Assembly (NCBI GenBank): GCA_965213625.1
Contig: CBDBZU010000004.1
Location: 3,584,001-3,648,000, forward strand
From: a bacterium
GTDB taxonomy: Bacteria > UBA8248
Direction of reading: 5' to 3'
Length of the DNA: 64,000 bases
The notes below the pieces were generated by a model, which worked only from the letters and a program-made list of their open reading frames with translations, was not told where the DNA came from and ran no database searches. Positions 24,107-52,840 of the stretch are shown here, piece after piece. Position numbers and translations under genes: made by a program. The first letter of the stretch is position 1, and every line of letters begins with the position of its first letter.

Positions 24107-24469
24107 TTGGACTGGATAGGAGTGGGACTCTTGGTGCTGGGCGCCATCGTGGGCACGCTCAACGCGGCCACAGGCGTGGGCTGGGGCATCATCATGATGC
24201 CCGTGCTCTTCCTCATCCCCGGGCTCACGCCCCAGCAGGCGGTGGCGGTGTCGATTCTCGCCTACCTGTTCAACTCGCTGGTCGCCTCGTTCGAGAACGT
24301 GCGAGGCGGGCTAATCGTTTGGAATTACGCGGTTTATCTCAGCATCGGGGCCATCATCGGTGGGGTCCTGGGCGCGCATCTGCTCCAGACATTCTCGGCG
24401 CTGACGCTCAAGAGAATCGTGGGCGTCGTTGTGATCGGCGCAGGCGCGAGCCTGCTCATCAACCGCTGA
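24107..24469 (+). CDS. Half-size TSUP (TauE/SafE sulfite exporter) family protein
   Basis: G..G.GWG..MP.L, PQQAVA.S, GAIIGG.LGA; only four TM helices. Confidence 0.8.
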   Translation: MDWIGVGLLVLGAIVGTLNAATGVGWGIIMMPVLFLIPGLTPQQAVAVSILAYLFNSLVASFENVRGGLIVWNYAVYLSIGAIIGGVLGAHLLQTFSALTLKRIVGVVVIGAGASLLINR

Positions 24470-24473
24470 GAAG

Positions 24474-24501
24474 AAAACCCCCCGTCAATGACGAGGGGTT
24501 T
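24474..24501. terminator. Probable intrinsic terminator between convergent units
   Basis: AAACCCC-CGTCA / TGACG-GGGGTTT hairpin immediately after the TSUP stop. Confidence 0.65.
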
Positions 24502-24568
24502 CATACTGCTTGCCCCTTATAGGCTTCCGACTGTCATCGCAGAGTAGATAAAGCACACGAAATCAGCG

Positions 24569-24596
24569 ATTTAACGTAATCTGTTTCATGCGATAC
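24569..24596 (-). other. dif-like XerCD recombination site
   Basis: GTATCGCATGA-AACAGA-TTACGTTAAAT; 10/11 match to the E. coli XerD arm, 7/11 to the XerC arm, 6-bp spacer, intergenic. Confidence 0.5.
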
Positions 24597-24605
24597 ATCG
24601 GTCGG

Positions 24606-24746
24606 CTATCCCAGCAGCTTCCTCTTCATCCAGCCCAAAGCCCGCGCCACGGCGGAGAACAGCCCGCCCACTCACGTGGGGCAGGCCGCTTGTTCCGGCG
24701 GCGTTTGGCCCTTATCGTGAATCTTCTCCTGCGTGGGGTTCGGCAT
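24606..24746 (-). CDS. Putative 46-aa selenopeptide with CxxU motif
   Basis: ATG 3 nt after DUF971 stop; MPNPTQEKIHDKGQTPPEQAACPT-U-VGGLFSAVARALGWMKRKLLG*; TGA at 24672-24674. Confidence 0.5.
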
Positions 24747-24749
24747 GAT

Positions 24750-25103
24750 TCAGCCCTTTCCTCCCTGCGAGCTTTCGTCGCGCCCGGGGGCGATATCGTA
24801 AAGATAATCAAACGAATAGATGCCCGCGCCGCAGCCGCCCCGCCAGATGAAATTAATGGCGTAGCGCCCCACCATCTCCACGTTCTCGAGCTCTGTCGGT
24901 CCACTCGGCCCCGAGAGGACGGCGAGGGGGTTTTTCTCGCGCTCCTTGCGCTCCTCCTTGCAGTTCGCGCACGGGCAAAGGGCCGCGAGATAATCGAAGC
25001 CGTAGGCGCTCTTCTCCCCGCTCGCCCACTCGACGCGAAACTCACGGGCGGGCTTGTCCACCGTGAGATCGACGGGATGGGCCTTTTCGACAGGCGCGCT
25101 CAT
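24750..25103 (-). CDS. DUF971 (gamma-butyrobetaine hydroxylase-like N-terminal) protein
   Basis: L..LCPCANC, VGRYAI..W, GIYSF.YL. Confidence 0.88.
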   Translation of the reverse strand: MSAPVEKAHPVDLTVDKPAREFRVEWASGEKSAYGFDYLAALCPCANCKEERKEREKNPLAVLSGPSGPTELENVEMVGRYAINFIWRGGCGAGIYSFDYLYDIAPGRDESSQGGKG

Positions 25104-25137
25104 AAGACGCTGGACTCCTGATGGCGTTTACGGCGCA

Positions 25138-25797
25138 TCATTTCGCCTTCATCCCGTATTTCTCATACTTCTTCGACGAGGAAGAGCTGAGCTTGGCGGA
25201 TTGGGGCGTCTTGAGCTCCAGCAGATAGGGCCGCTCGGCCGAGGTGGCCTTCACGGCGTCCAAGAGCCCCTGCTCATCGCCGTCGCTCTCCCAATCGCCT
25301 TCTTCGAGCTTCACGAAAACGGGCTTGCCCTCCCCGAAATCAAGCGTGGGAACGCCGAAAATGCCCTGCTCGGCCGCGTCCTCATGCTCCTGCGCGATAA
25401 GGGGGATGGTGGCGCCGTTTTTCATGTCCTCCTCCCAGCGATCGACGTCGAGGCCCACTTCCACGGCGATATCGCGCAGAACCAGCTCGCTGGTGATGTC
25501 CTTGCCGTCCCTGTGCCTCGCCCGGTGGAGCGCCACGTGGTACTTGTCGAACTGCGTCTCGCCCTGTAAAGCCGCGCATTTGGCCGCCTGATGCGGTGGC
25601 AGATCCCTGCTCGGGAAAGTCTTATCCTCCCAGGCCTTCCAGTCCTCTCCGCGCGAGGGACCGAAATTCGCCTGCTCGAGCACGAAGGCCTTGTAGTCCA
25701 CATTCAGATCGCTTCTTTTTTCCTGAAGACGAACGAGCCACTCCATGGCCCTGTAGGCGTAAGGTCAGACGTAGCAGTTCCACATGGTGACTTTCAT
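25138..25797 (-). CDS. DsbA/FrnE-family thioredoxin-fold selenoprotein (Sec11)
   Basis: TAAGGAG RBS; MKVTMWNCYV-U-PYAY continues in frame into the 202-aa ORF; GIFGVPT cis-Pro loop; TGA at 25765-25767. Confidence 0.85.
25735..25751 (-). promoter_or_regulatory. SECIS-like hairpin
   Basis: GGGCCAT-GGA-GTGGCTC starting 14 nt after the TGA. Confidence 0.6.
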
Positions 25798-25908
25798 GAT
25801 TTTCTCCTTAACAAATCGGGGCATAAAGAAACATTGCGCGCCAATCATACACCACAAGAACGCCGATGAAAAAGCAGGGCAAAGTCTTTTGAAAATAGCC
25901 GTTTTTCG

Positions 25909-26508
25909 CTAATTTTCAGGCGTGAGCGCCTTGTTTAACAACGCTTCCGCACCCGCGTTCAAGGAAAGCTCCCTGGCGGCCTCCTGCCCGCGCGGAGACA
26001 TTTTTGCCCAAGTTTTCCGCAAGATGCCGATGATTTTCTCCTCATCATGCAGGCGGGAGAAATCCCAGAAATAGCTTTCCAGAAACACCAGACAGGCGAC
26101 GTCCTCGAGCGTCTGGGTTTCCGGGTCTGTCTTCAAGCCCTTTTTTTTCAACAGCATTCGCACACGGTCTATCGTTTCATCGTCGCAACCAACCTTTTCT
26201 AGAATCTCAGCCGCTTTCTCTCCATGAAAATCATAAAGACGGGTCCGCCATTGGTGATATCCCTTACGGCCCTGGGGGTAATCCGAGCGTGGAATCTCCC
26301 ATCGGCGTATATGTTGGCTCCGCACCGCCAGGCGCAGGGCTTCAGAGGCTTGCGGCTCTATGGTATCTAGCCAGTTCGTCATTCTCATCGAATACAATAG
26401 CTCTTTGGGGTAATTTTCGCCCTCGAAACTCTCGGTATTGGGATCTTCAGAATTCGCCTCATCAATAAGAAGCATAGATTCTACAAAACGTTTGGGGTTT
26501 TCCCTCAT
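25909..26508 (-). CDS. DUF4202 family protein
   Basis: ID.AN.EDPN, QHI.RWEIPR..YP.GR.GY..WR, LEDVACLVFL, KTW.KMS. Confidence 0.88.
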   Translation of the reverse strand: MRENPKRFVESMLLIDEANSEDPNTESFEGENYPKELLYSMRMTNWLDTIEPQASEALRLAVRSQHIRRWEIPRSDYPQGRKGYHQWRTRLYDFHGEKAAEILEKVGCDDETIDRVRMLLKKKGLKTDPETQTLEDVACLVFLESYFWDFSRLHDEEKIIGILRKTWAKMSPRGQEAARELSLNAGAEALLNKALTPEN

Positions 26509-52207: not shown

Positions 52208-52840
52208 ATGAGCAAGTTGAAAGAACCAATCGTTGTGGTGAAATACTCGGACTACACATGACCGTTTTGCTATGTCGCCACCGTTGGTGGCACGCCCGTG
52301 ATTGAAGAAGACCCCGATGTCGTCGTCGAGTGGGTCAGTTGGGAGGGGAGACCACCCGGCCAGGAGTTCGCCGGTTACTCGCCCGAGCAGAAAAAAGAAA
52401 GTTACGAAAATAACCACAAACCTCTCGCAGAGAAATACAACGTGCCCATCCGTGTGGCGGGGGGCGACTACCGCACCACCAACCTGCACATGGCCACCTA
52501 TTACGCCCGCGATAAGGGAAAGTTCAAGGAATTCCGGAATCGCTGCTACAAGGCCCGCTGGGAGGACGACCTGAATCTCGAAGATTTGGACGTCATCGCC
52601 GGGCTCGCCGAAGACGTCGGCTTGGACGGCGAGGAAATCAAGGCCGTCATCTCCGAGGGACGCTACATCGGCGCACTCCACAGCCAGCGCGCCCAGGGAA
52701 AAGGCCTGGGTATTTTCGGAATCCCCACGTTCGTGGTTGAAGGAAAGCTCTTCTGGGGCAAAGACGTCATCGACGACGTCAAGGCGGAGGTCGCGCGCGT
52801 GAAGCAAGAACGGATCGAGAAGGAGAAACAGGAGAACTAG
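52208..52840 (+). CDS. DsbA/FrnE-family selenoprotein (UxxC, Sec18)
   Basis: GGAGG RBS; KYSDYT-U-PFCY in frame with the 180-aa ORF; GIFGIPTF..WG.D; TGA at 52259-52261. Confidence 0.9.
52277..52291 (+). promoter_or_regulatory. SECIS-like hairpin
   Basis: GCCACC-GTT-GGTGGC starting 16 nt after the TGA. Confidence 0.65.

Follow-up and report, generated by a model that had tools for sequence, protein, structure and literature searches.

A short open reading frame on the minus strand, at positions 24606 to 24746 and immediately 3' of a DUF971 gene, probably represents a new family of micro-selenoproteins, a separately initiated gene of 46 codons whose in-frame TGA at codon 25 would be read as selenocysteine. 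Positions are those of the window, by which we mean the whole 64,000-nucleotide stretch of DNA that was analysed. The micro-ORF begins with ATG at 24746-24744; this codon and the 23 that follow make up 24 sense codons ending A-C-P-T, and they lead to the TGA at 24672-24674, 21 further codons, and a TAG stop at 24608-24606. If the TGA is decoded, the peptide contains the motif C22-P-T-U25. The sequence-only reading had proposed a 46-residue peptide with a C-P-T-U motif starting three nucleotides past the DUF971 stop, and this agrees with the window to the letter. The DUF971 stop TGA (24752-24750) is followed by ATC and then by the ATG of the micro-ORF (TGA-NNN-ATG, a gap of three nucleotides), and a Shine-Dalgarno-like GGAGG lies on the same strand at 24760-24764, within the end of the DUF971 gene and 13 nucleotides 5' of the ATG. 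This start arrangement is the classic pattern from which translational coupling would be predicted.

The micro-ORF would be the last cistron of an operon consisting of a DsbA-like selenoprotein gene, the DUF971 gene, and the micro-ORF itself. The first gene of this presumed operon (25138-25797, minus strand, Pfam PF01323) has a C-Y-V-U motif with its TGA at 25765-25767; the PF01323 match begins at profile position 2 if this TGA is read through, and the TGA is kept in every one of the 31 related loci in which the N-terminus is included. The DUF971 (GBBH-like_N) gene follows at 24750-25103 on the minus strand and encodes a Cys-rich protein of 117 amino acids that matches Pfam PF06155 with 64.4 bits. 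DUF971 has been tied to Fe-S cluster maintenance by mutant cofitness in the accessible portion of Price et al. (bioRxiv 10.1101/072470). The DsbA-like selenoprotein forms in the available parts of the review tables (PMC9312934, PMC13188914) are UxxC and DxxUP, and the C-Y-V-U (CxxU) protein may be a further subtype beside these. No signal peptide is apparent by inspection on either the micro-ORF peptide or the DsbA-like protein, in which the active site occupies residues 8-11, and the DsbA-like, DUF971 and micro-ORF products would therefore all be cytoplasmic. A second DsbA-like selenoprotein gene, with a U-P-F-C motif, is located on the plus strand at 52208-52837 (TGA 52259-52261) and matches PF01323 with 99.5 bits if read through.

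A promoter-like site, TTTTCA-17-TATGAT, lies 5' of the DsbA-like gene at 25844-25872 (minus strand), which is a consensus match only, with one such site found and 0.4 expected. Past the micro-ORF, at 24470-24502 on the minus strand, there is an intrinsic-terminator-like hairpin with a U-run that folds at -20.4 kcal/mol (z = -5.2, with none of 200 shuffles as good); it was missed by a simple pattern scan and was evaluated by separate folding. An analogous hairpin and T-run occurs 3' of the micro-ORF in relatives, at a variable distance. The window's terminator-like hairpin is also directly past a convergent TauE-like gene. This TauE/SafE-like ORF of 120 residues (24107-24469, plus strand) covers only positions 1-110 of the 237 in the profile and so has a half-length form. 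In two related loci (L008 and L022) the 3' end of the micro-ORF apparently reaches into the end of the convergent TauE-like gene, and in a third (L013) no TauE-like gene was found by tblastn. A DUF4202 gene lies farther upstream on the same strand, so that the Pfam-assigned neighbours are DSBA, GBBH-like_N, DUF4202 and TauE, and no maturase-type gene was seen beside the micro-ORF.

Of the 51 genomes of the class, 28 have the micro-ORF 3' of their DUF971 gene, and two metagenome contigs carry it too. All 30 of these loci have TGA at the same codon, and 29 have C-x-x-TGA; TGC or TGT, TAA, TAG and sense codons of any kind were found at this site in none of the 30. Of 41 related genomes, the DUF971 protein itself was detected in 34, among them all 22 other genomes of the genus. 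Among the 30 DUF971 loci fetched first, 19 are followed by the same micro-ORF in the same frame, each with C-P-T and then TGA. The start codon in these 19 loci is always three nucleotides past the DUF971 stop and varies in identity (ATG in five, TTG in nine, and GTG in five), and a purine-rich GGAG-type motif precedes the start in all 19 as well as in nine further loci. Within the main genus the spacing is nearly invariant, with 25 codons from the DUF971 stop to the TGA in 18 of 18 loci and 21 codons from there to the final stop in 16 of 18. The homologue search suggested by the sequence-only reading therefore located the ORF in close relatives, with neither divergence nor a frame shift after the TGA and with neither TAA nor TAG in its place.

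A profile of the 19 peptides searched against the 51 class genomes matched 21 of the 23 genus genomes (G000 counted) and four genomes from two other genera of the family (G054, G057, G041 and G042), with one in-frame TGA in every match. Inspection by eye added G024 (C-S-T-TGA), G023 (C-P-T-TGA) and G025 (C-H-F-TGA), the last belonging to another family of the same order. Together with G015 and G009, these make up the members beyond the first 19 loci, all of which have the TGA. The family thus spans 21 of 23 genomes of the genus, three other genera of the same family, and a single genome from a second family of the order, with CPTU, CSTU and CHFU as motif variants across the wider membership. 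In the G009 locus (L068) TGG (Trp) replaces the Cys of C-x-x-U and the TGA and tail are kept, which could be a real variant or a sequencing error.

Two of the 23 genus genomes, G001 and G007, are without the micro-ORF even though they keep the DsbA-like and DUF971 genes. A different gene follows DUF971 in these genomes (loci L020 and L019, respectively), at unequal distances, and the neighbourhood has apparently been rearranged. In the class's other family, with seven genomes, the profile search gave no member, and four of these genomes were also inspected by eye; for G043-G053, G055, G056 and others, absence refers to the profile query only. A scan of GTDB species genomes gave 13 true loci, labelled Nitrospinota, Nitrospinaceae or simply 'bacterium', and two spurious loci. 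The sequence matches L073 and L074 were set aside as spurious, and so were three pattern-only matches (L088, L089 and L092), with frames that are full of stops or lack the motif.

The micro-ORF could in principle be a C-terminal extension of DUF971 made by stop-codon read-through, and this is ruled out by the differing frames and by the TAA stops of DUF971. Outside the main clade the micro-ORF is shifted by +1 or +2 against the DUF971 frame (L024, L025, L026, L067 and L068), and in the other genera it starts at an ATGA or TGATG overlap or 10 nucleotides past the DUF971 stop, with a Shine-Dalgarno-like motif at each. The DUF971 stop codon in the 19 loci is TGA in 14 and TAA in five, and because the two alternate at this position we conclude that TGA is a normal stop and not generally a sense codon in these genomes.

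Conservation of a protein-coding kind appears to continue in frame past the UGA, with only a weak excess of third-position change. Gaps after the TGA in the DNA alignment are of 3 or 6 nucleotides, all multiples of three. Across 18 same-genus loci there are no indels over 138 nucleotides and the start, TGA and final stop are all kept; the next 60 nucleotides past the final stop are essentially unalignable, with indels. Per site, variation amounts to 1.27 before the TGA and 0.68 after it, and rises to 2.5 in the 60 nucleotides past the stop. When the part after the TGA was compared among ten diverged representatives, the summed BLOSUM62 score was 1552 in frame 0 versus 838 and 818 in the other frames; frame 0 was best for 36 of the 45 pairs, and eight of the ten sequences have stops in frame 1. 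The hydrophobic-then-basic pattern of the tail is kept across genera with different residues and codons, and among 27 sequences Sec25, Val33 and Trp39 are invariant and Cys22 is present in 26.

At the codon level the signal is less clear. Variable sites are distributed over the three codon positions as 41/38/54 in the micro-ORF versus 23/21/100 in DUF971, and a crude pN/pS of 0.59 before the TGA and 0.67 after it gives no clear coding signal. The N-terminal half evolves fast (pN 0.25), and pS is only 0.20 after the TGA versus 0.43 before; across the 18 main-genus loci, codons 7-9 past the TGA do not vary at all, third positions included. The scarcity of synonymous change past the TGA shows constraint at the nucleotide level, which would fit either a SECIS element within the coding sequence or a non-coding RNA element.

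A SECIS-like hairpin with a seven-position stem containing one C.C mismatch is located at 24641-24658 (minus strand), its 5' arm at 24658-24652 and its 3' arm at 24647-24641. The CGUG loop (24651-24648) falls on the invariant Val codon, 23-26 nucleotides after the U of the UGA. The bacterial SECIS criteria of Zhang and Gladyshev in 2005 are said to call for a hairpin downstream of the UGA whose apical loop, about 16-37 nucleotides away from it, contains a G, mostly as part of GU. In the window alone the hairpin is unremarkable: the 28-nucleotide segment folds at -6.5 kcal/mol (z = +0.71, with 146 of 200 shuffles folding at least as well), and the 60 nucleotides after the TGA give z = -0.13. 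Taken as a single sequence, the micro-ORF has no feature that stands out from chance, and any significance comes only through its relatives. All 16 sequences compared have a hairpin of 6-10 pairs with a loop of 3-5 nucleotides on the invariant Val codon, 23-30 nucleotides after the U of the UGA. Their stems show nine or more distinct sequences, rich in G+C within the main genus and of the CUUCU/AGAAG type in other genera, and the loop G and U are invariant alignment columns at +24 and +25. At randomly chosen GT sites of this genome, a hairpin of this kind is expected by chance in 10% of cases for at least six pairs and in 1.2% for at least nine.

Tests for covariation gave mixed results. In a MAFFT alignment 85% of cells pair and two pairs are changed on both sides, with a covariation score reached by 200 of 500 shuffles. 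A model-fitted alignment, in which one of the 30 rows (L026) is a spurious place, gave 79% pairing and three double-changed pairs, and its score was attained by 10 of 500 shuffles; a slide of +2, however, scores equally high. RNAfold favours other folds in the main genus. A competing stem, GGCGG/CCGCC, is also present in the window; 78% of its cells pair, with no compensatory changes, and it is not the predicted fold in other genera, so we did not retain it. The sequence-only reading had called its hairpin weak and had noted the competing stem, and both are indeed there in the window, where the hairpin is no better than shuffles; the hairpin it preferred is the one kept across lineages, and the alternative is without compensatory change. 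It had also pointed to a loop offset shared with the two DsbA-like genes, and the offsets do match, the loops of these genes lying at +23-25 (GGA) for 25138-25797 and at +24-26 (GUU) for 52208-52837. The hairpin loop of the SelD gene is slightly nearer, about 20-22 nucleotides past its in-frame TGA.

The genome has the machinery for selenocysteine incorporation. A tRNA-Sec with anticodon TCA scores 75.9 bits and SelA 505 bits; SelB is present, with a winged-helix domain in a 652-residue frame, and so is SelD, whose gene (L043, G000:C4:1518852-1519814) itself carries one in-frame TGA. The SelB wing_3 domain occurs twice, at G000:C4:265-405 and C4:185022-185162, both with 78.3 bits; the copy at the contig start is in a 140-residue open frame and may reflect either duplication of a segment or overlap in the assembly. 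According to the part of the BSepDB report available (PMC13326102), three GTDB UBA8248 organisms, labelled Nitrospinota, Nitrospinaceae and Nitrospinae, have 48-54 selenoprotein genes and are among the ten richest bacteria.

Contigs from sequence runs were compared over positions 24300-26000, with three runs on record as RNA (X1-X3) and a fourth (X4) only guessed to be so. X1 yields a 169-nucleotide contig with four differences that covers 24558-24726. X3 yields a 1278-nucleotide contig, about 90% alike and with a depth of 24.7, that covers 24592-25797 and hence the DsbA-like gene, DUF971 and the micro-ORF. The RNA-library contigs covering the micro-ORF come from two studies, and none of the contig differences listed is at the TGA, a further 124 differences lying outside those listed. 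Such contigs are not proof of a single transcript or of transcription.

Several other explanations of these data deserve consideration. The UGA could be an ordinary stop, in which event the product would be a 24-residue peptide ending A-C-P-T and the conserved 63 nucleotides beyond it a 3'-end RNA element, such as a stabiliser or a protein-binding hairpin. The drop in pS, the invariant codons 7-9 and the weak third-position excess all agree with constraint of this kind, but a SECIS inside a coding sequence also gives nucleotide constraint, and an RNA element does not account for indels that are all multiples of three, for conservation that ends at the in-frame stop, for about twice the protein similarity in frame 0 as in the other frames across genera, or for a hydrophobic and basic pattern kept with different residues and codons. 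We regard this explanation as unlikely. It is very improbable that the whole 141 nucleotides are untranslated, a conserved 3' region of the DsbA-like/DUF971 mRNA in which the open frame is incidental. The fast-evolving N-terminal half would suit such a region, as would the lack of any family or structure that anchors the peptide, yet all 19 loci have an initiation codon (ATG, TTG or GTG) at one and the same place, preceded by a purine-rich motif, the ATGA and TGATG overlaps recur in other genera, no indel interrupts the 138 nucleotides in 18 genomes in which the next 60 cannot be aligned, and the TGA is the only in-frame stop in every genome.

The region could also be divided into two mini-ORFs, one of 24 codons ending at the TGA and one of 21 codons re-initiated at the adjoining GTG. 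A Val codon directly follows the TGA in 16 of the 18 main-genus loci, but of the two Val codons used only GTG (10 loci) can start, GTC (six loci) cannot, and elsewhere the position is occupied by GGC, GCC, GCT, CCG, CCC, ATC or CTG. Because this codon varies among members there is no conserved start after the TGA, and the two-ORF arrangement has hardly any chance of being correct. Alternatively, the micro-ORF might be translated mainly as a selenium-sensing or regulatory device, with the efficiency of UGA decoding setting the fate of the mRNA and the peptide itself functionless, as its very small size, fast N-terminus and heavily Sec-dependent host might suggest. The conservation of C-x-x-U and the tail pattern at the protein level argues against this, and because the micro-ORF is the last cistron before a strong terminator and a convergent gene, nothing lies downstream for it to regulate; a purely regulatory role is thus highly doubtful. 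The micro-selenoprotein interpretation is not free of doubts of its own, namely the weak codon-level signal, the thermodynamically weak hairpin in the window, and the lack of Cys homologues.

The peptide resembles no family that we could identify. Searches of Pfam (E up to 0.01) and of NCBIfam release 20.0 (E up to 10) gave no family for it, and searches for a Cys form gave none among 5.8 billion clustered proteins, 1.84 billion representatives, GTDB species genomes or metagenome contigs; nor was a longer, fused form found in the 5.8 billion clustered proteins. The sole family match in that set is P0002, a protein of 46 residues with W at position 25. Because the corresponding DNA (L091:1201-1338) has TGA at this codon, the W is a gene call made under a code in which TGA is Trp, and P0002 is a mis-annotated probable Sec protein. 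The 1.84 billion representatives gave just two matches, P0002 again and P0003, a 725-residue repeat protein that matches only an acidic stretch and C-P-T-C and was dismissed as spurious. A protein atlas search with P0002 returned no usable match, and complex prediction with the window's DUF971 protein and P0002 as single sequences gave a score of 0.02, with a partner pLDDT below 50, a result that speaks neither for nor against an interaction. The peptide was not found in the literature on selenoproteins with Nitrospina, UBA8248 or DUF971, in the portions of it that are accessible and with the prediction lists of deep-Sep (PMC12013277) outside the comparison, and the available parts of the selenoprotein family tables in PMC9312934 and PMC13188914 (2026) have no DUF971-linked or comparable family.

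The N-terminal arm of the peptide is polar and near neutral to acidic, with 16-40 residues across genera. The tail following the Sec residue has a net charge of +3 to +6 and a muH of 0.42-0.74, and its best 19-residue Kyte-Doolittle mean is 0.29-1.08 (22 distinct tails), with basic residues interrupting the segment. We therefore set aside a transmembrane, tail-anchored protein, since this hydropathy is too low to span a bilayer; peripheral membrane binding is possible. The sequence-only reading had inferred a membrane-associated micro-selenoprotein, of which the micro-selenoprotein with a CxxU motif and a basic amphipathic tail is probable, and the membrane association, with no spanning segment in the tail, is no more than a possibility. 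It had ranked this as the least certain of its four TGA cases, and the case has proved robust.

We propose that ribosomes ending DUF971 re-initiate three nucleotides downstream, as the stop-NNN-start arrangement and the ATGA and TGATG overlaps would suggest, and that SelB with Sec-tRNA(Sec) decodes the UGA at codon 25 as selenocysteine, presumably guided by the short hairpin with its G-U loop. The product would consist of a polar and probably disordered N-terminal arm, the C-x-x-U motif, and a basic amphipathic helix some 20 residues long. Its chemistry would most likely be that of a selenenylsulfide/selenol-thiol couple situated at the helix N-terminus, as for CxxC and CxxU in thioredoxin-fold proteins. 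The peptide would act with the DsbA-like selenoprotein, presumably cytoplasmic as well, and with the neighbouring Cys-rich DUF971 protein, and the basic helix may hold it at the membrane surface or on a partner. We lean towards viewing the family as one of obligate-Sec microproteins with no Cys form, confined to one order of selenoprotein-rich, Nitrospinota-labelled MAGs, and as the third, peptide-sized component, with the DsbA-like and DUF971 proteins, of a redox or selenium/metal-handling set.

Discovery of bacterial selenoproteins has mostly relied on pairing a TGA with the Cys codon of a homologue in an alignment, and on ORFs that are long enough to call. The micro-ORF escapes both detection routes because it lacks a Cys homologue and is just 46 codons long, and the only database trace found of the family is the gene call that reads its TGA as Trp. 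If our interpretation is correct, it adds a selenoprotein family that is among the smallest in bacteria, and DUF971, which is widespread and whose part in Fe-S maintenance is hinted at only by genetics, gains a conserved partner set of a DsbA-like selenoprotein and a selenopeptide. It would also mean that these uncultured and very selenoprotein-rich bacteria merit a rescan for short TGA-containing ORFs. If the obligate-Sec reading holds too, there would be a hidden layer of micro-selenoproteins that is invisible to pipelines based on Cys/Sec homology and a minimum ORF length. This would be an extension rather than a new principle, because the CxxU redox chemistry is of a known kind.

Comparison with known systems gives several partial likenesses. 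The thioredoxin-fold CxxU selenoproteins (SelW-like/Rdx, PF10262, and GrdA) likewise have Cys-x-x-Sec directly before a helix, where a selenenylsulfide couple is expected, and the micro-ORF also adjoins genes for other thiol/selenol oxidoreductases. Unlike these proteins, the 46-residue peptide is too short for a thioredoxin fold, and it has neither a family match nor relatives in the Cys form. The eukaryotic selenoproteins SELENOK and SELENOS are small, largely disordered and membrane-tethered, with Sec near the C-terminus and an N-terminal transmembrane helix; in the micro-ORF peptide the proposed Sec lies mid-chain, the tail is of an amphipathic and not a transmembrane kind, and there is no homology. 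Closer in size is VhuU, a very small selenopeptide subunit of about 45 residues in the archaeal [NiFeSe] hydrogenase, which has its own gene beside that of its partner. The micro-ORF is similarly a small gene of its own, for a probable selenoprotein of about 45 residues, beside a presumed partner, but VhuU is archaeal, has UxxC, and is a split-off C-terminal piece of the large subunit, whereas the micro-ORF peptide resembles no larger protein. Small motif families in NCBIfam (the CC/Se motif family NF041239, the dual-CXXC family NF041197, and the selenobacteriocin family TIGR04081) are also short bacterial selenoproteins, identified chiefly through a motif at Sec, but the peptide matches none of them; these family names, and MvhA/VhuA/VhuU, are listed in Table 1 of PMC13188914, in the part of that article available. 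The DsbA-like selenoproteins of the window are DSBA-fold proteins of 210-219 residues with which the micro-ORF peptide shares only the type of redox motif, but they are encoded in the same genome with the same UGA-to-loop spacing, and one of them lies in the same operon.
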